Origin: Neophaeotheca triangularis
Lineage: Eukaryota
Reading direction: 5' to 3'
DNA: 64,000 bases
Assembly (NCBI GenBank): GCA_054600435.1
Contig: BAAIJX010000062.1
Span: 1-64,000, forward strand
In this document: positions 13,899-57,811 of the stretch, one piece after another
Position numbering within the stretch: the stretch's first letter is position 1
How the letters are laid out: every line of letters begins with the position of its first letter
Made by a program: the position numbers and the translations under genes
Notes under the pieces: model-generated
The model's input: only the letters and a program-made list of their open reading frames with translations
The model's database searches: none
What the model was told of the DNA's origin: nothing

Positions 13899-16800
13899 AT
13901 GGACGCCCCGAACTGGCCAGAGTCATCATTCCCAAATGGAGACGTCCCTTTCGACTCAGCCTTCAATATTGGTCAAAGCAACGAAGAATGGGAAGACTGG
14001 CTAAGGTGGGACCCTGCCCAAGACGCTACATCGCCTGAGAATGCCACCTCAAACTCAAGCCATTCGCAAAACGATTCTCCCCTTCAAGATCATGCCTTTC
14101 CACTTGGTCACGATCTATCTGGCAAACCGGGATGCAATGACACGCTGGCACCGCCCATGATTGCAGGCGAGGATGCCTTAGATCTCGGACTAGATGATCT
14201 AGCCGGTAACGATGCGTTTATCTTCTCTGGTCAGCCCGAGGATTCTGCTGGCTCCGCCGGCTTTGACTTTGCACTGAACTCCCAATCAAGTCTTCAGCAG
14301 CCTTCGCAGCAGTACGAAGTATCCGGGGGAGGCTTCAATGATGCTCCTTGGCCTGTGCCTTCAAATACGGACCTAGATGTACAGGACTACAGCATTCCAG
14401 CCTTGACTGAAGAACAGATGTCCGCCCTGTCAAACGTTGCACTATCTACGACAACAGTGCCTAGCTCGTATCAAAGTCCGGACTCTCAGACAAATAAGCG
14501 CACCAGCTCGTCTTCAAACACATCACCAGCCGCTGCCGCTCCTCCCGCACCGAAGAAGCGCGGAGGTAGGAAGCGAAAAGCTGAGGTAGAGCAACCTAGT
14601 CCTGAGAATGGTGGATCACAGGACGGGGACGAACCACCAGTCAAGAAGACCTCTCATAATGTCATCGAGAAGCGGTACCGCAACAATCTCAATGACAAAA
14701 TTGTAGAGCTGCGGAACAGCGTCCCGAGTCTACGTGCCATGGGTCGGTCTAATGGTGGTGGCGATGAGGACCTGGAGGGCTTGACTCCGGCGCATAAACT
14801 CAACAAGGCAACTGTCATGGGTAAGGCCACGGAGTATATCAAGCATCTGGAGAAGAGGAACAAGTCAATGCAGGAGGAGATGGATGCGATGAAGGCCCGT
14901 CTTAATGCAGTCGAGGCTGCTATTGGAAAGACCAGGAGTGACAGTTCGACCAACAGCTCGCCGAACACTAACCCCAGACAACGACAGCAATCTTCCGCTT
15001 CCCAGCAGCCTGGACAGCAAACTTATTTCAACCCTGCAACCGGCAATTCTGCTGCCCAACAACAATACATTCAACAACAACAACAACCCGCTTATGCTCG
15101 GCCCCCTAACCCGCCAGTCGAGGCCCAAAATCAACCGCAGTTTGCCGACGGCAGAGGAGGTCTCCTGAACAAAGTCATGCTTGGCGGTATGGCCGGACTC
15201 ATGGCTATGGAAGGCTACCACGAGCATCAACAAGCGGGAGGAGATACCTCAGCACGTGGTCTTCTTGCAGCACCTGTCCACCTCTTCAGACGAGGCGTAA
15301 TAGAGTCACCGTCATCGCCAGCCGCTTTCTCTCAACAAGCACTTATGCCGTTGCTTAAGATGGCACTTATTGTTGGAGCCCTGATTTACTTGTTAGCCCC
15401 ATTGCTCACGTTTTCTCCGCGGCGGAAAGCGAGACCTAACCAGCAGCGGCAATCAGTCCGCCTCGCTCACGTCCCTTCTCTGGCATCCCCGGTCGAGGTC
15501 CGCCGCAAAGCCTGGCTGACCGCTGTGCAGTCCGTCTGGGTGCCCAAGAACTTTTTGCTCGAGGTAGCAGCGGTGACATTCAAAATCACCAAATTGTCCC
15601 TTCGTCGCTTGATTGGCTCCGAAACCTTCACCATCCTCGCTGGAACCACTCCTGATGACGAAGCAGCCCGTATCAAGGCCTGGGACATTGCAATTGACGC
15701 GCAGCTTGCTGGAGGAGACGCCGAAGTGTCTTACTACCGCCTTCTTCTCACGCTCATGGCAAGCGGCACTCTCCCAGACAGTCCTACTCGCCTCATGCAA
15801 AAAGCTGTGCACTTCCGCGTCTTCTTCTGGGAAGTTGCCAATGCTGGCTACGGCAATCTCGTCATGTTCAAGCAATTCACCGAGCACGTGGGCAAAATTT
15901 ACTGGGACAGCGCTAGGAAGCTCCAGAAAGAGCTCGAACACGCAAAAGTTCAAGGCCGACTACATTCCGACGGGCTTGGCGACGAGGATGAAACCGAACT
16001 GCTTCCTGACCACCTCGCTCGCTTGGTCGAACTTGATTGCGACACGGTGCTAACAGACGAGATGATCCAGCGGGCATGGAATCTAGCGTGGAACAAAGCT
16101 TCAAACTACGCTTTGGCTACACCTCTCAACGCGGCTCGCGACAGCGTCGTCGAAGATCATGCCATTCGCAGCCCTCTTGATGCCGTAGCTGCTTGGTTTG
16201 CCCACGCCACGGTGGACGACACCCTCCTCGACAGTCTCAGCCAGAATTCCAACCGTGCCAGTGCCCACCGCAGAAGTCACTCGCTAGGCTCAAGCTGGGA
16301 CACGCAATACAACCTCACCCTCGCCGTCTCAGTAGCACCACCGGCTTCCGGCGCTCTGGCTCGCGCTCTAACAGCCAAAGCACTACTAGGCCCATCACAA
16401 AACCGTGGCAACAATATCATAGCCGCTCTCGAAGCCCTACCACCTCCATCCACTCCCTCCTCAACAAACACAAGCCCCGCAGCTACAGCCTCCACTCCAG
16501 CATCAATGCTCACCTCTCCCCAGGCCCCGGCGAGCCCAGACCTGCGCACTGCCCTCAGCATAGCCAAGATCCAACTCCTTCTCGCTACGTCCCAAACCCC
16601 AACCCCAACTCCCTCTCAACCCCTCACCTCCGCCCTCACGCATCTCAACCACCTAACCACCCATCTTCTCCACCCCACTCACCTGACCGTCCTCACTGCC
16701 ATCGGCGTCTGGAACCTCCTAACAACACTACAAACCGTTTCCTCTTCCACCACTACCACTTCCCAGCAAGAGCTATTCGCAAGTTCTACGGAACTTCTAG

Positions 16801-17075
16801 CCAGTAATCTACGTATCTGGGCGGGCACGACGGCGGGTAAGCGGGCGGGGCTGATGGGTTGGCAGAGGGGGAGGGTTGTCGAGGGGTGTTTGCGCGTTGT
16901 TCGGGGAGTAGGGGGATGGAAGGCCGGGGTTGGAGAGGCGGAGGGCGAGGCGGAGGTAGATAGTGGGTATGGGAGTGGGAGTCGGGCGGGGAGCCGGGGT
17001 AGTGGTGGGAGTAGGATTAGTGGGAAGGATGGGAATAGGGGACGTGGTTTGGAGGGGTTTGGAGTCGTGGGGTAG
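13899..17075 (+). CDS. srbA: sterol regulatory element-binding protein (SREBP; SrbA/Sre1-like bHLH transcription factor), 1058 aa
   Basis: bHLH KKTSHNVIEKRYRNNLNDKIVELR...KLNKATVMGKATEYIKHLE with the SREBP-diagnostic Tyr (KRY), two hydrophobic segments, and a C-terminal region (RRKAWLTA, AWDIAIDAQLAGGD, RSPLDAVAAW) resembling DUF2014. Confidence 0.9.
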   Translation: MDAPNWPESSFPNGDVPFDSAFNIGQSNEEWEDWLRWDPAQDATSPENATSNSSHSQNDSPLQDHAFPLGHDLSGKPGCNDTLAPPMIAGEDALDLGLDDLAGNDAFIFSGQPEDSAGSAGFDFALNSQSSLQQPSQQYEVSGGGFNDAPWPVPSNTDLDVQDYSIPALTEEQMSALSNVALSTTTVPSSYQSPDSQTNKRTSSSSNTSPAAAAPPAPKKRGGRKRKAEVEQPSPENGGSQDGDEPPVKKTSHNVIEKRYRNNLNDKIVELRNSVPSLRAMGRSNGGGDEDLEGLTPAHKLNKATVMGKATEYIKHLEKRNKSMQEEMDAMKARLNAVEAAIGKTRSDSSTNSSPNTNPRQRQQSSASQQPGQQTYFNPATGNSAAQQQYIQQQQQPAYARPPNPPVEAQNQPQFADGRGGLLNKVMLGGMAGLMAMEGYHEHQQAGGDTSARGLLAAPVHLFRRGVIESPSSPAAFSQQALMPLLKMALIVGALIYLLAPLLTFSPRRKARPNQQRQSVRLAHVPSLASPVEVRRKAWLTAVQSVWVPKNFLLEVAAVTFKITKLSLRRLIGSETFTILAGTTPDDEAARIKAWDIAIDAQLAGGDAEVSYYRLLLTLMASGTLPDSPTRLMQKAVHFRVFFWEVANAGYGNLVMFKQFTEHVGKIYWDSARKLQKELEHAKVQGRLHSDGLGDEDETELLPDHLARLVELDCDTVLTDEMIQRAWNLAWNKASNYALATPLNAARDSVVEDHAIRSPLDAVAAWFAHATVDDTLLDSLSQNSNRASAHRRSHSLGSSWDTQYNLTLAVSVAPPASGALARALTAKALLGPSQNRGNNIIAALEALPPPSTPSSTNTSPAATASTPASMLTSPQAPASPDLRTALSIAKIQLLLATSQTPTPTPSQPLTSALTHLNHLTTHLLHPTHLTVLTAIGVWNLLTTLQTVSSSTTTTSQQELFASSTELLASNLRIWAGTTAGKRAGLMGWQRGRVVEGCLRVVRGVGGWKAGVGEAEGEAEVDSGYGSGSRAGSRGSGGSRISGKDGNRGRGLEGFGVVG

Positions 17076-36597: not shown

Positions 36598-37343
36598 ATG
36601 GCATCTTCTGAAGGCACCAAGGTTCGTACACTCCCTTCCGTTCAAGCAATTCTCACAGCTAAACAACAGTCGACATTCAGGTCACCAAGGACCCCCAAGC
36701 ATTCGAGAACCCCAAGACTGAAAACCCCGGCGTCGTCCCCAAGGACAGCCTAGCGGGCCAGTCCGTTCAAGGCGGAGGCTCTTTCGCCGCCAACAGCTCT
36801 TCCAGCGGCCTCATGGACCAAACCGCCGGTAGTCTGACCGCCAACACAACCGACACTAGCAACGCAACGAAGCTCGACGCCGCCCCTGACGCCGAAGCCA
36901 GACAAGCGAGCGGCGCGTGGCAAGAGCAGGGTGCCCTGAACGCTGGCACAGCAGGCAAGGGCCCGACCTACGTTGGTGGCGGCGGTGGCGTCGGCGCCGG
37001 CACCACACAGTCCCAGTCCGCCGCCGGCGGCTCTAGTGGCGCTGCCTCGTCCGGCGGCGCTGCCACTGCTGGCACTGCTCCCGGCTACGCCTCCCACCCC
37101 GCCCCCGTCATGGGTGACAACTTCCAGCCGCACGGCAAGAACATCACCGAGGGCGGCTTCGACTCCAATGCCCCCAACGCTAGCTTTACGACTGACATTG
37201 GTGGCAAGAACGACCCGTCCAGGGTGGCTCTGCAGGGCGCCGAGAAGAACAACGTGCCCGTTTCCGGTGGTGCTGGCGCCAGGTCTCAGGGCCCTGGTCA
37301 AGAAGGAGGCCAGTACGGGAACTTGGATGAGACCTCCGCGTAG
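36598..37343 (+). CDS. Gly/Ala/Ser-rich hydrophilin-like protein, 2 exons (36598-36621, 36681-37343), 228 aa
   Basis: MASSEGTK plus a 59-nt intron (GTTCGT..CAG) joins in frame to ORF 36813..37343. Motifs DSLAGQSVQGGGSFAAN, PHGKNITEGGFD and NASFTTDIGGKNDPSR. Confidence 0.85.
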
Positions 37344-38540
37344 AGGGGCGTCTTCTTGTGTAGTTCACGCATCATGAGATAAATTCTGTTTAATGAAAAG
37401 CGAAAAAGGTGTGAACTTCTTGGGCTACCTTAGTGTCTTCAATCGACGTGATGAGTTTTCCCATGCTATTTCTTCGGAAGAATAGTTCAAGGTTAGACTG
37501 GGGCAATGACGAGGCGATCTACGGTGCTTGACACTCGCTTCGTGTAGGGGATAAACTACCATGTCAGGGGCTCTATGGGCTCTTGGTTTGTGGCACCCCA
37601 GCGACGGCATGCAACCAATCGCCCTACAACAGGTCACTTAGCCGTCACCAATGCCCATAGCACCCCATAGTTTCCTGGTTGGTAGTTGTAGATATTCGGG
37701 AGCGGGACGTTGAGCAGAATGATCACGCCAAGCGTGCGCACCATCCAAGTAGTTGGGTGAGTGATTGCGTGAGAGCGAATTTTGGGTGAATCCGGCGGCG
37801 GGTTGCGAGGTGGAGGGAGAGGAGGAAGATCATACATGAGGGTACCGGGGAGGGGAGGCTCCAGGCTATCAGGCTTGAGGGTGGGAAGCGTTTGGGAGGG
37901 GCTGCAATTCTGAGGAGGCAAACGTGATGGAGAAATTTACAAGTAGTTTTCAGCGGTTCCTGCTCCGGTTATGGTGAAGGGGATTTGGAAGACGGATAGG
38001 AAAGATATCGAGAGGTGCAACGCCGTGAATGATCCACTGCGCCTGTTTGTGCCGAGGATTGATGGTCTCGAGGGAAGGGTGAAGGTTTGACTTAAGGCAG
38101 CGCACATCTTAAGCAAGATGCCGAAAAGAATACTGACACTCGAGGAGTGCAAAGGGACTGGTTACGTTGTGGTTGAAATGATCGCTGCGGTTCGTGCTAC
38201 TAATATGATCTTGTTCACAGCTAACTTTCTTGGAAGAGAGCAGCATCGCTCGATACATTGTCACCTCACTTGTTCATCGTAGATAATTGCCGCATACCGG
38301 ATAGTGTATGTAAGCTCGGGTAGTCTCAGGTATTGCAAGCATCACGACAGTATTCCGTCGGGAGGTGGGTGGAAGTGGTTCACGGTGGTTGTATCTTAGG
38401 TACCGGGAAAACATCGGGCGGTTCAGAGAGCTGGGAGATGGTAACCCAACTGCACATGTTCCAGTGCTTGTATGCGCAATACATACGTATAAATCCAACA
38501 CCAGCAGTGGCAATACTAGCTGGCTACCGACGTGATTCCA

Positions 38541-41390
38541 ATGCTCGCTCGGACGCGTTTCGCCTGGCGCGTGAGAACGAGCACTCCTGGACGGGGTGGC
38601 ATACGAAAGCAATGGGGCTACCTACACCTTCCACACCGGTCGTGGAGCTACACGCCTCGAAACCGACAGAAGATAACCGACCAGGATGAATTTGAAGCTG
38701 CCGCCAGCCATGCCTCACTTCTTCCGGTGTACGCCGATGGGCAGCATGGGCATGCCACAGAAACAACACTTGGAGCAGAGACCGTGCTCGGCTTGATAGC
38801 CAACACAGGAAGAGGCAATGCGCCATGGCATGTGATTCTGAATGGCATTGGAGTATCAAAGAGCCGTGCGAAACCAAGACTAGGGCAACATGGTAGCTTG
38901 ACGCTCCTCCTGACCCCCGAATATGCTCCGCAAGCCCTCGACAAAAACCTCCCACTTGAAGTACTCGCTCTACTAAGGGCAGAAGATCAGCACATTCCTT
39001 CAACGGTCGATGTAGTGGTTGCTGTCGTAGACAGTCTGCCTCGTTGGAAGAGCACCCAATGTTGCCAGGGCATGGCATACCTTTGGCGTCCAGTGGAGAA
39101 GGAGATTAGCGAGAGCATAGATGATGACAGGGCAAAACCGCTGCAGCGGGAGGCTACGAAGCCAGGCAATGCTGTTTTCAATCTTATAGACGCTCACAGC
39201 GAACCAGCATCAAGCTTAGATATCGGTCACCAGCGGCTGCAGTTGCCTTTAGCCCAGACTGTCTTTTCAACTGGCCTAGTCTCGACGTGTATAAGGCGAC
39301 ACTACCGCAAAAACCAGGACGCAGCCGCAGGCAAATCACTTCAGGAGACACTCATACAAACGAAAGAAGATAAGCTAGAGAGCTACCGAATCGATGTACC
39401 CATAGCACTGCCCCAGGGTAGCACTGTTGCGTCAGTGAAGTTTGCGACGCCTCTGCTGCCTCTCACACCTCTACGACGAGTGGAGAACAGTATGGGAAAT
39501 ATTGTCCGCAAGTTGTCATTCGTTACTGCGCGGCAGCTGAACATGTTGGAATCAACTGGTGAGCGAAGTGGAGTAATGCGAGAGCAAGCTGAAGCGGAAC
39601 CCCTGCCCGCTTCCAGCGAATTGGAGGCCATGGTGACCAAATATTTCGAGCACCTCTCCATACCGCCAGAGACTGTCAACGTTTGGGCACTTGTTATTCC
39701 TAAACCACTGGCTGACCTCCTGGCCACTGGGCGAGGCGTAACCAGGACCGGAAAACGCCTTCGCGCTCTCACACCCGAGAACATTACGTCGTGCTGGCCT
39801 GGAGGAAAGGACTCAAGAGGAGACGATAAACACAACTCGGAGAGGTGGTCCAGAGTCTTGCAGCTTGTGCAAAAAGGCGCCAAGCTTTGCAAAGTGCTAT
39901 CTGGGGGTGGCGGCTGGGGTAAGAAAGCTGGCCTGCTGTCTCTAGATCCGGATGTTGAGTATTCTACTCGCGAGCTTAGACAAGATAGTGGATGGGAGTT
40001 TGATTTCGAAGACGACTCTGAGCAAGGCGTTGCGAAACAGCAGCGCCAGGCACTTGGCGAGGTCGTCGGCGAGGGAGATGGCATCATGTTTTTTCTATCA
40101 CCGAACGATGAACACATGCCCGAAGTCCACAAAGCCAGCCACCTTCAAATAGACCACGGCATAGGGAACCCGGAACGTCGAGTTGACTTCGGTACTATCC
40201 CCTCGACCATGGACGAGATACCAGATAGTCAGGAGAGTGAGGATGGGCAACCGCTTGCCTATAGAATCCATCATTATCACAATTTCTTCGGGGCTATGTC
40301 AGAGGGTGGAATGGCAATGTCTTTCAAAAGGATTGGCGATCGTACCGCTGCGCGTTTACAGGATGCAACCACATCTCCCGCTGCGGCGCTTGATTTGCGA
40401 GCTCAATCGAAGTTTGACGTTCCTAATACACGCTTCAGCATGATCATCGGTGGGGACAAAGCAGTGCCCTCTACCGCCACAAACGCCAGTGAACACGCTA
40501 GTCTTAGGACTAATGAAGGAGATTTAAGACCTCGTTCGAATCGCAGAATCCACCAGTCTCGTAGAACCGATCATGGTCCTCGGATTCGCAGAGTTGAGCA
40601 CGAAAAGGCTCCGCCATTACCAAAGAAGAGAAATCCACAAAGCTCGCAGAACCGGCCGATAGAGAATCAAAACTTGTTCAGGACTCACACTATGTCTTCA
40701 GGCGTAGCAAAACATTCTCTCTTCTCCGGCCTACCCTCACCTGGATCACGCAGATCTGTTTCCACCTCAACCAGGTTGGCAAAGCGGCCACCTATAGGGG
40801 AAGGACGCATGTTCATCGAGGAGCAGAGGAGGAATTGGACGGCGAGACTGGAAGCCGCGGCTTCTGCCGGGAGAGGCACGGGAGCGGGCGCTTTGCAATA
40901 CCAGAGGCTACAGGTTTCCCATTCGTCGGAGCGCGCCAAGAGTGCCAATGAGGAAGCCAAGACCAAGGAGAGGCAAAGCGAGATGCCCAGAAAAGTTGGT
41001 ACCCCTCAAATGGAAAGAAACCTCGTCAGGAAGTTTCACGCTAAAGCGATTCCTAGGAAGCCAGGCTTTGTCGACAATCTTGATCTGAGAGAGGAAAGCA
41101 ACAAGAAGCATAACGCGAAGCGTGAGCAAGTCTCGAGCGATTCGGGCCAGGGACCGCACACTAGCCGATGTGCCCAAGGTAGAACAAAGGAAGGCCCGCT
41201 TGTGGCGAGCAAAGAGCCATCTCGCCCAAACGGCATGCCCTCGAGGGATGAGCTTTGCAACGGACGAGATGAATCCACCATAGGAGAGCGCCCTACTCGT
41301 GGAACTGCTAAGCAGGTTCGTGTCAATGGGGACCCCGACCTCGACGAGTTTGAGGCCTTCACCAAACCGCAGCGGAGAGCCAGCGCTTGA
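38541..41390 (+). CDS. hypothetical protein, probably mitochondrial, 949 aa to the first stop (TGA CTA G)
   Basis: Arg-rich, acid-free N-terminus MLARTRFAWRVRTSTPGRGGIRK; structured-looking core (VAVVDSLP, LPLAQTVFSTG, PLLPLTPLRRVENSMGNIVR, KVLSGGGGWGKKAGLLSLDP); basic disordered tail. Confidence 0.85.
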   Translation: MLARTRFAWRVRTSTPGRGGIRKQWGYLHLPHRSWSYTPRNRQKITDQDEFEAAASHASLLPVYADGQHGHATETTLGAETVLGLIANTGRGNAPWHVILNGIGVSKSRAKPRLGQHGSLTLLLTPEYAPQALDKNLPLEVLALLRAEDQHIPSTVDVVVAVVDSLPRWKSTQCCQGMAYLWRPVEKEISESIDDDRAKPLQREATKPGNAVFNLIDAHSEPASSLDIGHQRLQLPLAQTVFSTGLVSTCIRRHYRKNQDAAAGKSLQETLIQTKEDKLESYRIDVPIALPQGSTVASVKFATPLLPLTPLRRVENSMGNIVRKLSFVTARQLNMLESTGERSGVMREQAEAEPLPASSELEAMVTKYFEHLSIPPETVNVWALVIPKPLADLLATGRGVTRTGKRLRALTPENITSCWPGGKDSRGDDKHNSERWSRVLQLVQKGAKLCKVLSGGGGWGKKAGLLSLDPDVEYSTRELRQDSGWEFDFEDDSEQGVAKQQRQALGEVVGEGDGIMFFLSPNDEHMPEVHKASHLQIDHGIGNPERRVDFGTIPSTMDEIPDSQESEDGQPLAYRIHHYHNFFGAMSEGGMAMSFKRIGDRTAARLQDATTSPAAALDLRAQSKFDVPNTRFSMIIGGDKAVPSTATNASEHASLRTNEGDLRPRSNRRIHQSRRTDHGPRIRRVEHEKAPPLPKKRNPQSSQNRPIENQNLFRTHTMSSGVAKHSLFSGLPSPGSRRSVSTSTRLAKRPPIGEGRMFIEEQRRNWTARLEAAASAGRGTGAGALQYQRLQVSHSSERAKSANEEAKTKERQSEMPRKVGTPQMERNLVRKFHAKAIPRKPGFVDNLDLREESNKKHNAKREQVSSDSGQGPHTSRCAQGRTKEGPLVASKEPSRPNGMPSRDELCNGRDESTIGERPTRGTAKQVRVNGDPDLDEFEAFTKPQRRASA

Positions 41391-42686
41391 CTAGCCGTCT
41401 GGCATCGCAACGCAGCGGCGCTCTTTGCTACGAGATTGGGGGCTGCCACGCCCTCCGGACGTGCAGACGCAGTAGTTTCCGCATCTCAGCCACGAGGGCC
41501 TTTTCGCGGAATGATAGCAAAGCAAGAAGTGTTCGCCGTTTCCAATCCATTCCAGGTCGTGACGAGGGCTCGCTGTCTTTGTAGCGCACAGCTGCCAGTT
41601 TTTGAACAATCTTTCTCTACTTCTACCAGGCTATCGAAAGGGCCCTTAACAAAGGAGAGGCGTATGGAAATCAAGGAGCGCCAGCGTGCAAGGAAGAGAC
41701 AAGAGACCGCGAGGCATGAGCGCGCCCGCGCCGATGCGGAGCTAAAGCCACGCCAACAGCAGCGCTTTTCCGAGTATGGCGTAAGGAAGAAACAAGAAAT
41801 CGCGAGGTATGAGCGCGCCCGCGCCGATGCGGAGCCAAAGCCACGCCAACAGCAGCGCTTGACCGAGCATGGCTCGACAACCAACTCTGTCGCGACGACT
41901 TCTAAGACTCAGAACAAGTCCACCTTCGACAGGACGCAATGGCCAGTCAAGTACCAAAGCCTGCCATTCTTGGACAAGGCGGAGCTCGAGAGGTGCCAGC
42001 GCGAGCGACGCTGCCACAGGTCCCGCGAGCCTGGCCACTCGTTCTTCGAGATGCCAGCCCGGGCGGATCGTGAAAATTCCCCGGCCCAATATTCCCCCAT
42101 GCCACCCGGCGCGTACGAGTATCCAGAAGTCGAAGGATATGAAGAAAAGGCTCACTCAGCCAGCCGTCGAAATCAGCGTTCGCCATTCTCCGAGCTCTCC
42201 TCCCAGTTCCCCGTCCGAAACAGGCCGTCCCAGGCCCAGCCATTGCGCGACCCTCCGATAAGAAAGTATGCCGGACGCGTGAAGGACCTGCTGCCAACAG
42301 AGGCAAGAGATGCTCTCAACAACTGGTTCGTCAAAGGCAAGCGCAACTGGCTACAAAACCGCCAAAACAAAGCCGCCATGCGCTCCCGAATACTGCAGCG
42401 CTCGCGCCCCCTGCAACGCGCCGCCAAGCGGCAGGAAAGTCCCGAGCTTGGTACTCCGCTGGCCCGCCGCTTCCCTGCGTGCAACGCTCGTACGAGGCTT
42501 GTGAGGCCGGTACGCCAGGATGAGACGCCGCTTCAGAGGCGGAGAGCTAGAAGAGCGGAACATTTGAGGCTGGCGAGGGAGGAGAAGGAGAGGGTGATGG
42601 AGAAGTATCTGGCGAGGCGGCAGAGGGCTATGGAAATGTGGGACGTTGCGCAGCGGGCGGCTGGTGTTGGGCATTCCGACGGCTAA
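41391..42686 (+). CDS. 431-codon Arg/Gln-rich frame in phase with the preceding gene: readthrough extension, or a separate gene from ATG 41511
   Basis: 41436-38532 = 2904 (divisible by 3), and the 15 codons after the TGA are open. The frame contains a paralogous copy of an upstream 27-aa module and an in-frame 93-nt duplication. Confidence 0.7.
   Translation, partial: LAVWHRNAAALFATRLGAATPSGRADAVVSASQPRGPFRGMIAKQEVFAVSNPFQVVTRARCLCSAQLPVFEQSFSTSTRLSKGPLTKERRMEIKERQRARKRQETARHERARADAELKPRQQQRFSEYGVRKKQEIARYERARADAEPKPRQQQRLTEHGSTTNSVATTSKTQNKSTFDRTQWPVKYQSLPFLDKAELERCQRERRCHRSREPGHSFFEMPARADRENSPAQYSPMPPGAYEYPEVEGYEEKAHSASRRNQRSPFSELSSQFPVRNRPSQAQPLRDPPIRKYAGRVKDLLPTEARDALNNWFVKGKRNWLQNRQNKAAMRSRILQRSRPLQRAAKRQESPELGTPLARRFPACNARTRLVRPVRQDETPLQRRRARRAEHLRLAREEKERVMEKYLARRQRAMEMWDVAQRAAGVGHSDG
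41691..41873 (+). repeat. 93-nt (31-aa) tandem direct repeat, 2 copies
   Basis: Copies start at 41691 and 41784: RKRQETARHERARADAELKPRQQQRFSEYG and RKKQEIARYERARADAEPKPRQQQRLTEHG. Confidence 0.92.
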
Positions 42687-43065
42687 AGTGATGGTGCGGG
42701 GGTCATCTTGACTGGTGCAGTTGAAGAGCGAGCTGTTGCGGTGCTTGTGAAGGCATAAGACTGGGAAACAATTCGACGAGAATGTATATCTTGTACCTAA
42801 TCGCACCTTTACGGATGTCTGCTGCAATTCACAAGTGTTTGACCACAGCACATTGATACATCTTGCAAAGCTACATGGATATACACATTCCTCCCGTCAT
42901 CTGTTTCATCTGTTCCCGTAAACATCGCAAACAGTAGAAGCTGCATTGAAGCACTTTCAGCAGCAAGTCCGCGCCCTCCCAGCCCCAAACACCAAGCTAA
43001 AACGCTGCAAATAGTAGACAATGGGGACACGCATCTGTGTAGGCACCAGCTATGAGGCGTATGCA

Positions 43066-45521
43066 TCACTTCGCCTTCACGCTCGTCTTCCGACCCTTCT
43101 TCGCCGTGGCAGTGGCAAGTTCCAGCTTGAACTCCGCGCTGTCGAGATCGACCGCGCCGCGCATGATGCTCTGCCTGAGGAGGTCCTTGTGATAGACAGT
43201 GCGGTCGTGCTCGTCACGGAGCGTCGCCGCATCTGGGTCGTCTGCCAGGCCAATGAAGATGATGTTCGAGGCGCCGCGCTTCGCGCCTCGGGGAGTGACG
43301 CCTTTGGCTGCTTTGCCGTGATCCACGCTTTTGGCTCCGGCACTCTTACCAAGGGCCTCGATGCTTTTCCATCCAGAGAAGCCGTAGGCCTCCTTAGCCA
43401 TCTCGGTGAAGAATAGCTCTGTGCCTTTGAACAGCTGTGAGCGGTCTAGCTCTTGCGTGTCCGTAAGCGCCTCATGGACGTAGCCAGCTGGATCGAGAAA
43501 AGCACCCTCAGCCTTCGAGTCCACTAGCCATCCCTCTGTCACGACAGGTCGCCCAGAAACCAGGGTGCGTAAAACCTTTGCGGTAGCTTTCAAGTCGCCG
43601 TGGGCAACGATGCAGATGAAGTGGGTGCGCTTGGAAGGAACGTCCTCTACCACTTGTACACCCTTTGTGTCGAGCCACGCCACGGTCTTCTTGTCCAGTG
43701 AACAGCCACTCAAAAGCAAGCTCGACGGCTTGTGTGTTGTCGCAACTGTAGACTCGGCAGTCGAGGGCGGCGGAACGGTTGAAGCTTTGCTCGTGCTCCG
43801 CTTATTAGTGCGTGGTGGGATTTTGACCTGAGGTGATAACAGAGCCTTCTTCCTGGGTCGAATAGTGATCTCATCACCGCTTGACACGCTGACCACACCA
43901 ACAGGCTTTAGACCTCGTCGAGAATTTGAAGAAGGTTTGGAAAGGGCTCCAGCTCGCTTCTTTACCGGCGCGCTGTCCGCTGCTGTGTTGACGGCTTTTC
44001 GAGGTGGGCTACTAGCAACCTCTTCCTCGTCCTCCTCGGCGTCTTCGTCCTCCTCGGCAGCAGACAATACCGGTGCGGCTTTGGGTTGAGGGATATCACC
44101 GGCGCTGCCTAGCTCTTCGGAGGGCTCCCTCCTTGGATTAGATTTTCGTTTCTTCGGCTTCGGAGACTCCTCGACAGGTAGGCCGTACGGATCCTGTTTG
44201 CGCTTGAGTGAGCGGCTTGCCGCTGCACCGGCAACTTGCGCATCGTCGTACGCTTCGGAAGTTGGTACATTAAAGGAAGAGCTTGGCTCCCGCTGCACGC
44301 TACCATCACGGGCAATAGCAATAGCAATGCCATCGGGTTCCTCGTCCTCGGACTCCTCATCCTCCGATTCCTCACGCTCGTCATCTTCATGCTCGGCTTC
44401 TTCATCCTCCGGATCCTCACTCTCATTCTCGGGCAGGACGGTACGGTTATTTTTGCGGCCATAGGTCGCAGTCTTTCCTCTCCGCGCCTTCTTCTGCGGA
44501 CTTTCGGCAATGACGGTGCTCGGCTTAGAAGTAGAAGGTCCATGGGGATTCAATCGGCCGCTAGCCCGATGAGGAAAGGAATTCTGATCATTCTTGTTTG
44601 CGGAGGCTGGTACCTCGTCCGGGCCGCGAGAGGCGTCGAAAGGGGGCGATGCATCTACGACATGAGTAGATTGCGGTTGCTTCCCTCCGACGCGCATGAA
44701 TTTGGTGCCGGGAGACTCATCGCGCTTCTTCGAGGGGCTCTCGGCACTCGGCTGAGGTGCACTGCTAAAGACACCGTCACGAGCGGGAGCTGAAGGTGCG
44801 GTAGAGAACGGCTGGTGACTGTCTGCAGTTGGCGACCTTGCGCGGAATGTCTCTTCAGCATTCGTGCCAGTGATGACTGAAGTTGCTGGCGTCTCCAAGG
44901 CGGCGGTGGCTCTAGGCATAGATGTCGATGACACTTTGTCAAGATCGTCCTCATCCTCGTCCTCGGTATCGGACCCTCCGGCATCGCCAGCATCTGAAGC
45001 TTTGGGGACGGAGGACGCAACGTAGTCGGCCGTAGTGGCAGCATGCTCTAGTACGACCTCGGAGCAGTCTAGCGCAAGTTGGACCTTGAAGCCATTCCTG
45101 GAAAAGTTGATCGTGTCTCCAACGCGCAGGTGGATGTAATGATGCTCGAGACCTGCGCTGGCCGGGAGAGGAATCCTATTCAACGTGCTATGGTTTGGAA
45201 GCCCAGTGCTCAATGGCGATTCGATACAGACGCCTTCCACAAGAGGTTCCAGCTTCATCGAAGGCAAGTGATAGTCTATCAGACGGTGTTAGTAGACATC
45301 CCTGGCTCGGATCAGACGTTTCGTAGTGGAAACTCACGGAGCTTGGCGATTGGCTGTTTTTGCTTTCCATCACGTGACACATCACCATCGCTCGAATTTG
45401 TGAAAGGTTTGCCGTATCGTTCCTCGATGTCAAGGCATAGCTCATTCTCTTGGGCAAGAAGTTGACGCTCAACGGCGCCGTTGCAGTTCATAAAGCGCAG
45501 TTCAACTGCTTGGCGCGTCAT
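43066..45521 (-). CDS. tandem-BRCT DNA-damage scaffold protein (MDC1/Mdb1-like architecture), 2 exons (45521-45338, 45275-43066), 797 aa
   Basis: C-terminal BRCT signatures KATAKVLRTLVSGRPVVTEGWLVDS..GAFLD..Y and LFKGTELFFT...VYHKDLLRQSIMRG; long acidic, SP-rich linker; intron GTGAGT..ACTAAC..TAG adds the N-terminal exon. Confidence 0.8.
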
Positions 45522-46990: not shown

Positions 46991-48245
46991 ATGGCCGATT
47001 ACGCGGAAATGCCTTACAACAGCTCCTTCGACGCTCTCAACCAGGATATCACTATCCTCGGTCCTGATGGCCAGTCGCCCATGCTCTTCACCCTCGCCGA
47101 CGTGGCGTTCCTCCAGATCAACGCCGTTCGCCAGGGCATCATGTTCGGCACACAAATCGGCGCTTCCGCTCTTCTCTTGGTCGTCCTTATTCTTATGACC
47201 GGCAGCGACAAGCGCAAGAGCTCCATCTTCCTCCTCAACGGCATGGCTTTACTTATCAACACTATTCGCAACATCTTACAGTGCCTTCAGCTTACCGGAC
47301 CATTCTATAACTTTTATGTTTATCAGACGGAAGTCTATGACGGCGTCCCAGGGCTGTCACACGCCAAACGAGTCTCCATCACCGCTGGCGTGCTCACCTT
47401 TCTGGTCATCGTCTGCATCGAGGTTTCCCTTGTCTTGCAGGTCAGGATCGTCTGCGTGACGCTCAACAAAGCCAAGCGCTACGCCATTACCGCACTCTCC
47501 ATCATCGTCGCTCTCCTCGCGATCGGATTCCGCATGGCTCTGCTCGTTATCAACAGCTACAGCGTTGCGAACGTTGAGTCATACTCGGACAGCATGATGA
47601 GGCATCTCAACATGGTCGCTTCGGCTACGAACATCACCCTCACTGTCAGCATCGTCTTCTTCAGCATCATCTTCTGCGGCAAGCTGGCCATGGCCATCAT
47701 GTCAAGGCGCACCATGGGTCTCACCCAATTCGGACCCATGCAAATAATATTTGTCATGGGCTGCCAGACGATGTTACTGCCAAGTAGGTCTTTACCCCTT
47801 CCACTCCTGCTGAATCTCCGCTAACTTGCATGCAGCTCTCTTCGCCATCCTCACCTATTTCGTTCTTCCTCAAACCCAGCTGAACAGCTTCGTTGCCACG
47901 ATCGTCGCCATCTTCCTGCCGCTCTCCGGCATGTGGGCAGCAGCAAACGCCCACTCTCGCAGGATCGGCGGCAACAAGTTCGGTCGCAAGATGATGCCTC
48001 TTGGGCCCTCTGACCCGACCACGCTCTCCAAGAAACATCTCACTTCGACCACCTACAATACGTACGATGAGAAGACCAACTCTCTTGAGGGCGGCAGCTC
48101 TGTTGGCAAATCGCCGACCAAGTCTTCGCCCGGCATCAAGTCCGAGGACCGTATGAGCATCATCAGTGGCCTTGAGGATGGTCGCGATCTTGAGATGGGC
48201 GATGGCATCAAGGTGGACCACACATACAGCGTTCACCGTGGTTGA
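46991..48245 (+). CDS. STE2: alpha-factor-type pheromone receptor (Ste2/Pre2 GPCR), 2 exons (46991-47783, 47836-48245), 400 aa
   Basis: Seven hydrophobic segments; motifs FDALNQDITI, IMFGTQIGA, KRKSSIFLLN, IEVSLVLQV, KLAMAIMSRRTMGLTQFGPMQIIFVMGCQTM and VAIFLPLSGMWA; 52-nt intron GTAGGT..GCTAAC..CAG. Confidence 0.96.
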
Positions 48246-54307: not shown

Positions 54308-57300
54308 ATGGATTTTCCAACTCGAAATACCACTCCTCCCAACGAGGGCGGAGCGCAATTGGATTTTGACGACGATGTCATCACACCAAAGGCACAATCC
54401 TTTCCGGTCTCAGACCTCGATTCCTCGTTGGCCACGAACGCAACTCCGCCCCCTACTAGGAGTATTCCAATCTCTACCCCCAATCATACCAACCGAACAA
54501 GTGTTCTCAGTCAACTTCCAGACTTGAAGACTCAAACAACTGTAGCGCACGAGCGTGCGCAAGAACTCGGCAGATCACAATCCTACCACTCTCCCTCGAT
54601 GCTCGCACAACGGGCGCCTGGGATCGAAAGGTCTTATTCCGAACGATCACCATCCCCACACACACGAAGAGCACCCAACGGCGCTTTGAGTGAGGCTATG
54701 AACTCTACCAAGAGCCCTGGCTTGATTCGAAGGGTGTCCAGGGGTGCTGCTAACAGGATCAGACGCCGAGCGTCAACGACCACTACGATGCGCATGCGCG
54801 ACCAAAGCGCTGGTCCCGTGCTAGTCCGACGGCGTAGCGATAGCAACGGCGCGTCGGATCTTGCGCAAGACGTTTCAGACCTTGACCTGGATAGTCTCCC
54901 GGACGAGGCTGGGGAAGAGCCCGAGTACACAACTCACATTGGCCGTACTAATGGCCTTGGTATCTCCATGGGTCGCACCAGCAACGTCAGCAACGGTTCC
55001 ACTTCCTTTGAAGGCGGGATTGCTCCCGCCATCTCGGCAGTGCTGGAGCAAGGCACCTGGGTGGTTAAGGTCACTTCCAAGAAGCAAAAGAAAATAAAGT
55101 TGTGGCTTGATACTAACTCAGCACGAGTCTGTTGGCACCCCAGCAGCAACTCCAAATCCTTTTTCATCGACGATGTTCGAGAGATTCGGATCGGAGCGGA
55201 TTCTCGAAACGCACGCGACGATGTTCAACTACCAGATGAGCACGAAGATCGTTGGGTGACGATTGTTTACGACGTTCCGGAACGCTTCAAGGGACGAGCC
55301 ATCAAGACCATGCATATCCTCTGCCCGGATGTCTTCATCACCAAGCTTTGGTCTGACGCGCTCAACGTAGTGACCAGAGAACGCATTGAAATCATGAATG
55401 CTCTTGCACCGTCTGTCGAGAAGAGCGAAAAGTCCATGGCCATGGCTTGGCGTCAAGCGATGGCTCGCAAAGGGCCCGACGCCGAGCAGAGCTTCACTCT
55501 GGAAGACGCGCGATGGCTCTGCCGTAAATTGGAGATCAACTGCTCGGCCAATACCGTCAAGACTCACTTTACACGATCGGACACTGATCACACTGGCCTG
55601 CTGGACTACACTCGTTACCGTGACTTCGTCAACTCGTTCAAGGAACGAAAGGACATCCAGAATCTGTTCCGGAACACTCAATACGGCACGGAGCTGGACA
55701 TGAGCATCGAAACGTTCTTCCAGTTTCTCAAAGTTGATCAAGGTACCGATGTGGACAAGGACCGTGCCTACTGGGAGGGTGTTTTTGCCAAATTCGCAAA
55801 AGAAACCCAGCCCAGAAGCTTGGCGGACACTGAGCCGACCACGGGAGAACGCAAAATGAACATGCAAGGTTTCCAGAACTTCATGGCGTCAGGCGCATAT
55901 ACTGCACCCCTTACGCCACTCAAAGGTGAACCGACCCTGGAACGGCCGCTGAACGAGTACTTCATCTCGTCCTCGCACAATACCTACCTACTTGGTCGCC
56001 AGGTGGGTGGTCGCTCCAGCGTGGAAGGCTACATCGCAGCGTTGGTCAAAGGATGCCGTTGCATCGAAATCGACTGCTGGGACGGCGAAAATGACCGCCC
56101 AATGGTCACCCACGGCAGATCTCTCACCACGCGAGTGCCATTTGCAGACTGCGTCGCAGTGATCAACAGATACGCCTTCCACAGCACACCTTACCCTCTG
56201 ATCGTCAGCTTGGAAGTGCACTGTTGTGACAAGCAGCAACTTGTCATGGTAGAACTGATGAAGAAGCACTTTGGCGACAAGATGATTACGGAGCCGTTGG
56301 TATCGAACTCGGTCAGCCTGCCATCGCCTGAGGAATTGAGGCACAAGATTCTCATCAAGGTGAAAGCATCTTCCGATCTTATTCCTAGCCAGCCCCCTGC
56401 TGCTGTGGAAAATTCTAACGGGCGGAGTCGTGCGAGGAGCATTGGTAGTGCCTTCACCCGAACACCATCCATCGAGACGGCTGCATACACGTCTTCACCT
56501 TTGGTCTCGAGCCCATCCGCAACGAGCCCTTCTGAGCAGGGTACTGGTCTGGCTTCTACGCCACGGGGTTCCACAGCTTCAGGACCGACCGCAACACCAA
56601 GCACGTCCACCGATGACAGCGACGACATGCCTGCATCTGCAGAGAAGATGAAGAAAAAGAAGACGACCACGAGCAAAATAAAGCCTGAGCTGGGTAGGCT
56701 CGGCGTCTATACGCAAGGCGTGACCTTTACCGACTTCGATCAACCGGAAGCACGGTGGTACAACCACATCTACTCCTTCAACGAAGGCACCTTCAGCCGA
56801 GCTTCGCGGAAGAGCCATGAAACCAAGGAACTGCTCGAGAAGCACAACCTTCGCTATCTCATGCGTGTCTACCCTGCATCGAAACGGGTGGATTCTTCAA
56901 ATTTTAACCCACTGGCCGTCTGGCGACGTGGGGCGCAAATGGCGGCTCTCAACTGGCAGACATATGATGTTCACATGCAAGTCAACGAAGCCATGTTTGC
57001 AGCCGGTTCTGACAAGTTGGGCTATGTGCTCAAGCCAGAGGAGCTGAGACGCGCAAAGCATTTACCCATCACCGACACCCTCGCCGACGCAGCTGAGAGG
57101 CGCGACAAGAAGGACAAGAAGCTCGTCAAGTTCAGCGTTGAGATCCTGTCCGCTCAACGTCTCCCACGCCCGCGCAACGCCAACGCCGATGCCGGCATGA
57201 ACCCTTACATTGAATTCGAAATGTACAGCGCCGAGGACAAGGCGCGTGGCATTGCCAAGGGTGAAGGCGGTACCGATGCTTCAGCCCGCGATGGTTCGTC

Positions 57301-57811
57301 AGGCATCGGCTCACCATTGCGAAAACGAACGAGGGTCGTCGAGGGCAACGGCTTCGACCCCAGCTATTATCAGAACATCGACATGAGCGTCGAGACCAGG
57401 TACCCAAGCTTGATCTTTGTGCGCTGGACCGTTTGGAACTCACCCGACGCGAAGAAGAATAGCGGCAACAACACGTTGCTGGCCACGTTCACGGCGAAGC
57501 TCAGCAGCCTCCAGCAAGGCTACCGACACCTGCCCCTCTTCAACCCCCACGGCGAGCAATACCGCGACGCTAAACTCTTCGTGCGCATCTCTAAAGAAGC
57601 TCCCGTTCCAATCGAGCGCGACGAAACCGCCTACGGCATCATCGAGCCCTCCTCTTCCCCCCGACCGGAATCCACCCGCATCGGTCGCTCGTACGGCTGG
57701 CCACGCAAATTCTTCAGCCGCAACAACAGCCGACGAAGAGACCTCGACGCCGCCGAGGGAAGCACCTTTAGTCGTACTAGCAGCATGGAGCGCGACGGCT
57801 CCGTGGGTTGA
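54308..57811 (+). CDS. PLC1: eukaryotic phosphoinositide-specific phospholipase C (PH, EF-hand, X, Y, C2), about 1167 aa
   Basis: X box PLNEYFISSSHNTYL, GCRCIEIDCWDG, VTHG, PYPLIVSLEVHC and LPSPEELRHKILIK; Y box LMRVYP..RVDSSNFNP..GAQMAALNWQT..GYVLKP; C2 VEILSAQRLP...LQQGYRHLPL. First in-frame ATG at 54308. Confidence 0.96.
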   Translation: MDFPTRNTTPPNEGGAQLDFDDDVITPKAQSFPVSDLDSSLATNATPPPTRSIPISTPNHTNRTSVLSQLPDLKTQTTVAHERAQELGRSQSYHSPSMLAQRAPGIERSYSERSPSPHTRRAPNGALSEAMNSTKSPGLIRRVSRGAANRIRRRASTTTTMRMRDQSAGPVLVRRRSDSNGASDLAQDVSDLDLDSLPDEAGEEPEYTTHIGRTNGLGISMGRTSNVSNGSTSFEGGIAPAISAVLEQGTWVVKVTSKKQKKIKLWLDTNSARVCWHPSSNSKSFFIDDVREIRIGADSRNARDDVQLPDEHEDRWVTIVYDVPERFKGRAIKTMHILCPDVFITKLWSDALNVVTRERIEIMNALAPSVEKSEKSMAMAWRQAMARKGPDAEQSFTLEDARWLCRKLEINCSANTVKTHFTRSDTDHTGLLDYTRYRDFVNSFKERKDIQNLFRNTQYGTELDMSIETFFQFLKVDQGTDVDKDRAYWEGVFAKFAKETQPRSLADTEPTTGERKMNMQGFQNFMASGAYTAPLTPLKGEPTLERPLNEYFISSSHNTYLLGRQVGGRSSVEGYIAALVKGCRCIEIDCWDGENDRPMVTHGRSLTTRVPFADCVAVINRYAFHSTPYPLIVSLEVHCCDKQQLVMVELMKKHFGDKMITEPLVSNSVSLPSPEELRHKILIKVKASSDLIPSQPPAAVENSNGRSRARSIGSAFTRTPSIETAAYTSSPLVSSPSATSPSEQGTGLASTPRGSTASGPTATPSTSTDDSDDMPASAEKMKKKKTTTSKIKPELGRLGVYTQGVTFTDFDQPEARWYNHIYSFNEGTFSRASRKSHETKELLEKHNLRYLMRVYPASKRVDSSNFNPLAVWRRGAQMAALNWQTYDVHMQVNEAMFAAGSDKLGYVLKPEELRRAKHLPITDTLADAAERRDKKDKKLVKFSVEILSAQRLPRPRNANADAGMNPYIEFEMYSAEDKARGIAKGEGGTDASARDGSSGIGSPLRKRTRVVEGNGFDPSYYQNIDMSVETRYPSLIFVRWTVWNSPDAKKNSGNNTLLATFTAKLSSLQQGYRHLPLFNPHGEQYRDAKLFVRISKEAPVPIERDETAYGIIEPSSSPRPESTRIGRSYGWPRKFFSRNNSRRRDLDAAEGSTFSRTSSMERDGSVG

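Follow-up and report, generated by a model that had tools for sequence, protein, structure and literature searches.

A putative, deeply conserved UGA-CUA readthrough site with a long in-frame extension in a FIST-like protein family of Neophaeotheca triangularis and related Dothideomycetes

Organization of the locus

Two consecutive open reading frames (ORFs) of Neophaeotheca triangularis, separated by a single stop codon, are the subject of this work. They are located in the first 64,000 nucleotides of contig BAAIJX010000062.1 (assembly GCA_054600435.1); the whole of this stretch was analyzed and is referred to here as the window. ORF1 (38541-41390, + strand) comprises 949 codons and terminates in the sequence AGC GCT TGA CTA GCC, with the TGA at 41388-41390. 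Past this stop the same frame remains open for 431 codons up to a TAA at 42684-42686 (+), such that a protein translated across the TGA would have 1381 residues and end in ...GHSDG. The first in-frame ATG beyond the stop (41511) is located 120 nt downstream, corresponds to codon 41 of the extension and has a purine at -3. These coordinates had been proposed in a preliminary description of the DNA and were reproduced in full, as was its statement that the extension, which ends in ...HSDG, does not carry a peroxisomal targeting signal type 1 (PTS1). The context of the stop in the window is TGA CTA G, i.e., UGA followed by C, U, (A) and (G).

The length of the downstream frame is not expected by chance. 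At the 0.032 stops per codon expected from base composition, the probability of 431 open codons is about 7e-7, and none of 20000 shuffles was open. The 40-codon spacer between the stop and the first ATG taken alone would be open with a probability of about 0.27 and is not unusual. For eleven other long ORFs of the window, which together use TAA, TAG, and TGA, the in-frame continuation past the stop is only 4-108 codons. A codon-usage score trained on seven Pfam-supported ORFs of the window gave +0.13 per codon for the region 41511-42683 in the frame of ORF1, vs. -0.30 and -0.19 in the other frames.

Conservation of the stop codon and its context

With an alignment of the conserved N-terminal domain of ORF1 (N-domain), 80 loci were retrieved from metagenome contigs, and the reading frame of each was followed past the N-domain until its first in-frame stop. 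At 18 of the 80 loci (14 distinct sequences) ORF1 ends in TGA followed by CT and the frame continues; the continuations in the relatives are 188-564 codons long, except for those of L003 (197 codons) and L013 (21 codons), which reach the end of the contig. Another seven loci arrive at the end of their contig without a stop, and the remaining 55 never pair TGA CT with a long extension (95 codons at most). Taking the window and the 14 metagenome sequences together, the five nucleotides T-G-A-C-T are invariant (15/15), position +6 is A and position +7 is G in 10 of the 15 each, and the continuation keeps the frame of ORF1 in every case. Positions -9 to -1 before the stop vary freely. The persistence of TGA CTA and of the downstream frame in relatives, which had been proposed as a check on readthrough, is thereby borne out by TGA and CT in 14 further sequences with in-frame continuations. 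For four of the sequences, two separate data sets each gave an assembly (L004/L005, L007/L008, L010/L026, and L023/L024), which indicates that the stops are not sequencing errors. The preliminary description also allowed for a private nonsense allele, with a sense codon in orthologs; among the in-clade relatives with DNA no sense codon was found at the stop position, which is TGA in 15 of 15 distinct sequences and TAG in one further locus, L016, and a private allele is thereby refuted.

A FastTree phylogeny (71 rows, 547 columns) was built from 49 of the 81 DNA sequences (80 loci and the window) and 22 named proteins, after duplicates, near-duplicates and contig-end fragments had been left out by hand. 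All 15 sequences with TGA and CT are placed in one clade of 31 rows with a support of 100, in which the window and its nearest relative, P0002, are sister to the rest. The clade also contains Teratosphaeria, Friedmanniomyces, Elasticomyces, Meristemomyces, Recurvomyces, Acrodontium, Cladosporium, Septoria, Cercospora, Polychaeton and Oleoguttula. Outside of it, none of 33 locus rows shows TGA and CT together with an extension. A hidden Markov model (HMM) of 13 extensions matches 10 long protein models at NCBI, all of them from species within the clade. These public models treat the stop in different ways: those of Friedmanniomyces endolithicus omit unlike stretches at the stop (71 residues in P0014, 27 codons in P0035 and more in P0023), and the models of Elasticomyces and F. 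simplex terminate at it. A recoded stop that had not been recognized would produce such disagreement among gene models.

Two groups of loci show other arrangements at the end of ORF1. In Pleosporales-type loci (L046, L049-L054, L064, L065, and L067) ORF1 ends shortly after ...EDVGEP..., with TAG CTT, TAG CTC or TGA ATG, and the post-stop peptide is similar in most of them (MYSD.. or MCSD.., then S.., then IH or VH). Models of this group at NCBI come in short and long versions, and another intron or recoding site may lie at the stop. In Aureobasidium-type loci (L017, L018, L020, L022, L030, and L075) ORF1 ends in TAG GTAG, followed by 20-23 open codons, and the NCBI models have two lengths, 645 and about 1100 residues.

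Coding signature of the extensions in relatives

Across the clade, the stop has been kept together with its context and with a continuation that is coding in the frame of ORF1. Pairs drawn from within two sub-clades differ at codon positions 1/2/3 in 31/21/60 cases over codons +1 to +8 and in 56/37/160 cases over codons +9 to +40, and the first twelve post-stop codons of L009, L012 and L013 differ almost solely synonymously. The ratio of non-synonymous to synonymous substitution (dN/dS, Nei-Gojobori) is 0.21-0.38 for the extension in five of five pairs, vs. 0.26-0.46 in ORF1, with dS up to 1.2; the preliminary description had looked to a ratio below 1 past the stop, and this is what the relatives show.

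Thirteen complete or near-complete extensions can be aligned, with L1, R76, W83, and W219 nearly invariant. The extension of L004 is predicted to be helical, with a block-mean predicted local distance difference test score (pLDDT) of 74-92 over the first 100 residues, from residue 8. In the relatives' extensions the first Met is found anywhere between codon 9 and codon 139, and in the best-sampled sub-clade (clade A) at codon 74, behind the most conserved block; as no Met is conserved in the extension, independent initiation does not account for the conservation. The extensions end in ...VPR, ...VSR, ...ISR, ...GKR, ...RRP, ...RRD and similar sequences, none of which is a PTS1-like tripeptide. 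The L007 and L008 contigs, from two data sets, have starts no more than 2 nt apart, some 57 nt ahead of the ATG, and L007 ends 86 nt past the last stop with the TGA retained, as a whole unspliced mRNA would; the two contigs may be whole transcripts. The conserved TGA and CT, the shared frame and the low dN/dS in the relatives support the earlier proposal that this locus may produce two isoforms through readthrough.

The ORF1 protein family

At E up to 0.001, ORF1 has 159 homologs, and all of the named ones are from Dothideomycetes; most cover only about the first 54 percent of ORF1. The nearest, P0002, is 41% identical over 99% of the length and starts with the same residues. It terminates 9 residues past an EFEAF motif, as ORF1 of the window does, and this equal distance indicates that the position of the stop is shared. 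The first 46 residues of ORF1 contain 11 R/K and no acidic residue, a composition that is possibly that of a mitochondrial presequence.

No Pfam family matched ORF1 at E up to 1, the FIST and FIST_C profiles included; none matched ORF1 of two relatives at E up to 0.1, and none was found for the extension in the window. The AlphaFold model of ORF1 residues 1-640 has a predicted template modeling score (pTM) of 0.75, with residues 1-79 disordered (pLDDT <50). A Foldseek comparison of the model with the PDB returned nothing at E up to 0.001. The best structural match, for residues 80-637, is the FIST region of FBXO22 (8ua3_C; Z 7.4, root mean square deviation 6.0, 223 aligned residues), the next row having a Z of 3.4, and the Cercospora homologs are named 'FIST domain-containing protein' in UniRef. 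Judged by the predicted fold, ORF1 would belong to a FIST-like protein family of Capnodiales-type Dothideomycetes. The predicted fold of ORF1 resembles the FIST region of FBXO22 best, but the family has no Pfam FIST match and no F-box, and it has an invariant motif of its own, SGGGGWGKKAGLLSLDP.

The extension in N. triangularis

The extension of the window shares a module of ~50 residues (S-x-STSTRL-x-K-x-P followed by a basic stretch) with the tails of ORF1 and P0002. Matching of the extension module to the ORF1 tail module gave BLASTP E-values of 6e-5 to 9e-5, pairwise comparisons with the tails of ORF1 and P0002 gave 6e-5 and 2e-5, respectively, and within a database of 119 family proteins the tail-module match has an E-value of 0.002. 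An HMM of the first 40 post-stop residues of the relatives did not match the window extension.

A match by eye suggested that the window extension ends in the W-D and terminal motifs of the family, and in the same way out-of-clade continuous proteins appeared to share these motifs; in both cases the motif HMMs scored no better than decoys. Since the motif HMMs remain at decoy level and the extension HMMs match in-clade proteins only, these results do not establish that a stop was acquired by a gene which had been continuous in the ancestor. An RRxFST motif was considered as the presequence of a separate small gene, but P0002 has no Met before the motif, and in many species the motif is inside the ORF.

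The features of the locus are listed in Table 1.

Table 1. Features of the ORF1 locus and its proposed extension (window coordinates)
Feature	Position	Strand	Basis
ORF1, short isoform: presequence-like N-terminus, FIST-like domain, disordered tail	38541..41387	+	159 homologs; start MLAR..RFAWRVR shared with P0002
Basic N-terminus, residues 1-79, predicted disordered	38541..38777	+	pLDDT <50; first acidic residue at 47
Conserved N-domain, residues 80-640, FIST-like fold	38778..40460	+	Invariant columns; pTM 0.75; FBXO22 match
Invariant motif SGGGGWGKKAGLLSLDP within N-domain	39894-39950	+	Invariant alignment columns
ORF1 tail module with RRSVSTSTRL (40755-40784)	40659..40832	+	BLASTP match to extension copy; present in P0002
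Acidic-aromatic motif DLDEFEAF, 9 residues before stop	41337..41360	+	Conserved with P0002
Candidate 174-nt intron, judged unlikely	41316..41489	+	In frame; no branch site; would delete DLDEFEAF
In-frame TGA, proposed leaky stop	41388..41390	+	TGA in 15/15 distinct family sequences
CTAG, UGA CUA G readthrough context	41391..41394	+	C and T 15/15; A 10/15; G 10/15
Proposed readthrough extension, 431 codons	41391..42683	+	Coding-like in ORF1 frame only; 0/20000 shuffles open
Extension codons 1-40, stop to first ATG	41391..41510	+	Weak coding signal, score -0.15
First in-frame ATG of extension; start codon if a separate gene	41511..41513	+	First Met of relatives at 9-139, not conserved
Tail-module copy: PFQV (41547-41570), SFSTSTRLSK (41610-41639)	41514..41687	+	Sequence comparison with ORF1 tail
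Two tandem 28-residue basic repeats (41697-41780 and 41790-41873)	41697..41873	+	~70% identical by eye
TAA, end of long isoform	42684..42686	+	In frame with ORF1

Sequencing runs and surroundings of the locus

Contigs of the RNA run X4 cover 38990-40487 only, apart from short partial matches; none lies over the stop, so they are uninformative on splicing or transcript ends at this site. No joints were reported when four read runs were compared with the window. A 176-nt contig of run X2, from a second sample of the same organism, spans 41235-41410; it differs from the window by one letter somewhere along its length, the TGA included. Elsewhere in ORF1, the stretch 41101-41264 is covered by two X2 contigs that show 10 and 4 differences and have about half of the neighboring depth each, which would fit two haplotypes or copies; from 40768 to 42100 the X2 assembly is broken into fragments. 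Both X2 and X3 have 9 additional nt behind 40569, an in-frame insertion that falls in the disordered tail of ORF1. Past the TAA at 42684, a further 23 codons of the frame are open. At 42698, within a G run 12 nt beyond this TAA, 2 bases of the window are missing from X2, X3, and X5 alike; here the assembly of the window stands alone.

Upstream of ORF1, a G/A/S-rich open frame of 226 codons is present at 36663-37343 (+) in a stretch of 65-69% G+C. Downstream of the extension lies a convergent ORF of 730 residues (43066-45258) with a weak BRCT match, the stop of which is 380 nt past the TAA. Other ORFs in the neighborhood encode a protein with HLH and DUF2014 domains (SREBP-like; 13899-17075), a STE2-type pheromone receptor (46991-47824), and a phospholipase C (54308-57811).

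Readthrough and alternative explanations

The explanation that we consider most likely, and indeed probable, is a programmed, deeply conserved readthrough of UGA-CUA(G) with an unusually long, non-peroxisomal extension. The two ORFs would then be one gene with a leaky stop, UGA CUA G, that evolution has maintained: the majority of ribosomes would terminate at 41388-41390 and release the 949-residue protein, and a fraction would decode UGA by a near-cognate tRNA and continue in frame to the TAA at 42684, resulting in the 1381-residue isoform. The added part, as predicted for the relatives, would open with a confidently modeled helical region. Whereas the conservation described above is observed, we infer that the continuation is translated by readthrough and not by way of splicing, editing, or separate initiation. 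For the organism of the window, family membership, stop context, reading frame and coding statistics form the basis of the case, and they suggest readthrough from sequence.

Several observations weigh against it. In the window, the first 40 post-stop codons (41391-41510) look non-coding in codon usage (score -0.15), with G+C contents of 0.72/0.70/0.50 at codon positions 1/2/3. Other than the record of its own contig, no homolog of the window extension was found in a word-indexed search of 5.8 billion proteins, and none in a full phmmer pass over 1.84 billion representative proteins. Comparison with the 13 extensions of the relatives by hhalign did not give a significant alignment (17 columns, E 0.26). 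The stretch of the window extension that resembles the conserved block of the relatives starts right after Met41, which also fits an independent start. Among the relatives, L016, the only other in-clade locus with DNA, has TAG CTC at 2183, followed by Leu and 74 open codons, and P0027 of Cladosporium fusiforme aligns over the stop column without a gap, such that a sense codon or a modeled intron may be present there. No shared or unusually stable RNA structure at or after the stop was found in 11 sequences (z -2.2 to +1.8). Finally, the conserved TGAC(T) is like a fungal branch site with a CAG 15-27 nt downstream as the acceptor, as read from the sequences by eye, and the pattern with which we scanned for introns, GT[AGT]NG[TC]...YAG, is strict, so the scan is not exhaustive.

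If the downstream ORF were a second gene in tandem, translated from ATG 41511 on its own or on a shared transcript, the common frame and the TGA CTA G would be coincidental or irrelevant. The purine at -3 of this ATG, the non-coding score of the 40 codons that precede it, and the start of both the PFQV-block-like segment and the duplicated STSTRL module right after Met41 point in this direction, as do the G+C content at third codon positions (0.67 in 41511-42683, vs. 0.53-0.54 in ORF1) and the public gene call on the contig, which consists of two proteins (P0001 and P0121). These features of the window in particular would suit a separate gene. Overall we find this explanation improbable, as in the relatives conservation at the protein level begins with the first post-stop codon and includes no Met, the frame is shared by 15 of 15 sequences, and TGA and CT are invariant despite saturated dS, whereas a free-standing ORF would allow the upstream stop to drift among TAA, TAG, and TGA; moreover, only 120 nt separate the stop from ATG 41511. 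Removal of the stop by constitutive or alternative splicing, through a 174-nt intron from GTTCGT to CAG in the window and, in the relatives, through introns with the conserved TGAC as the branch site, is likewise an unlikely explanation. Besides the resemblance to a branch site, it has in its favor the in-frame GT...AG pair at 41316-41489, and several NCBI models carry predicted introns at the stop. The window intron, raised in the preliminary description as a weaker alternative, is indeed 174 nt long and in frame, but it has no match to a branch site and would remove a motif conserved with P0002. In 10 of the 15 sequences the scan found no intron pair across the stop, and in 12 of the 15 no in-frame pair. 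Directly before TGA stands G in 7 sequences, T in 4, C in 3, and A in 1, such that Y-TGAC is not kept; on either side, substitutions follow a codon-like pattern as far as the stop itself; the frame, which introns do not require to be shared, is common to all 15; and the Friedmanniomyces models are in conflict over the intron.

Adenosine-to-inosine (A-to-I) RNA editing could turn UGA into UGG and remove the stop, as in sexual development of Sordariomycetes, and stop-loss editing that makes C-terminal extensions is described as widespread in Fusarium and Neurospora (PMC13123824). The same source describes an enzyme biased to UAG and an origin of editing in Sordariomycetes (PMC13123824), whereas the stop studied here is UGA in 15 of 15 sequences; in addition, the conserved CU sits after the stop, which fits readthrough, and the same 11 sequences show no stable hairpin around the stop, so that we judge editing very unlikely. 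It is more doubtful still that the downstream ORF of the window is a decaying or newly diverged remnant, untranslated even if the relatives read through. The extension of the window is an orphan in protein searches, lacks the terminal motif of the relatives and ends 11 residues past its W-D motif, as such a remnant might; against this stand its 431 stop-free codons, a codon usage that fits the frame of ORF1 only, and the retained TGA CTA G. Also, no frame-shifting indel is listed in the parts of the extension that are covered by X2, the only nearby indel being the one 12 nt past the TAA. With respect to a selenocysteine reading of the UGA, no Rfam match, including the selenocysteine insertion sequence (SECIS), was obtained at E up to 1 in 38000-43400, and to our knowledge Dikarya lack the selenocysteine machinery.

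Comparison with known systems

Readthrough genes with long extensions are known from Drosophila, e.g., kelch, in which an in-frame UGA likewise separates two long coding regions (ORF1-UGA-ORF2) and conservation across species extends to the stop as well as to the coding signature beyond it; they differ from the genes described here in kingdom and gene family. We know of no comparable long, order-wide readthrough case in fungi, and our literature search found no paper on readthrough in Dothideomycetes or in the ORF1 family.

The sequence UGA CU(A)(G) has been defined experimentally as the core of readthrough in Ustilago maydis and HeLa cells (PMC4207609), and readthrough of UGA CUA(G) yields cryptic peroxisomal isoforms of PGK and Rpe1 in Ustilago maydis and of MDH1 and LDHB in humans (PMC4207609). 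The proposed system has in common with these the stop and 3' context, their conservation across species and, if the proposal is correct, the production of two isoforms per mRNA. In contrast to the short extensions ending in a PTS1 of the cryptic peroxisomal isoforms, the extensions in the family studied here have 188-564 codons (431 in the window) and no PTS1, and they look like a domain-bearing half of the protein. A-to-I stop-loss editing in Sordariomycetes also combines a conserved stop with a translated extension in filamentous ascomycetes; as described in PMC13123824, it concerns UAG in hairpins and short disordered tails, whereas in the Dothideomycetes analyzed here we find UGA followed by CU and a long extension.

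Implications

In its fullest form, which we favor only slightly, our interpretation is that of an ancient, order-wide UGA-CUA readthrough that adds a partly folded, helical half of 190-560 residues to a FIST-like, possibly mitochondrial protein. If true, one gene would give rise to two very different isoforms, the ratio of which is set at the stop codon. This would account for the conflict among the public gene models, some of which terminate at the stop while others bridge it by differing introns, and such loci would have to be modeled as a single gene with a recoded stop. It would also be a conserved natural example of UGA CUA G outside viruses and animals, and fungi would have their first readthrough gene with a long, non-peroxisomal extension and deep conservation; more fungal cases could come to light if genomes were scanned for TGA-CT followed by a conserved in-frame continuation. 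Functional readthrough in fungi would then comprise, beyond short peroxisomal tags, the addition of entire protein halves, and the family would offer a natural system for studying how a stop codon stays leaky over very long times.

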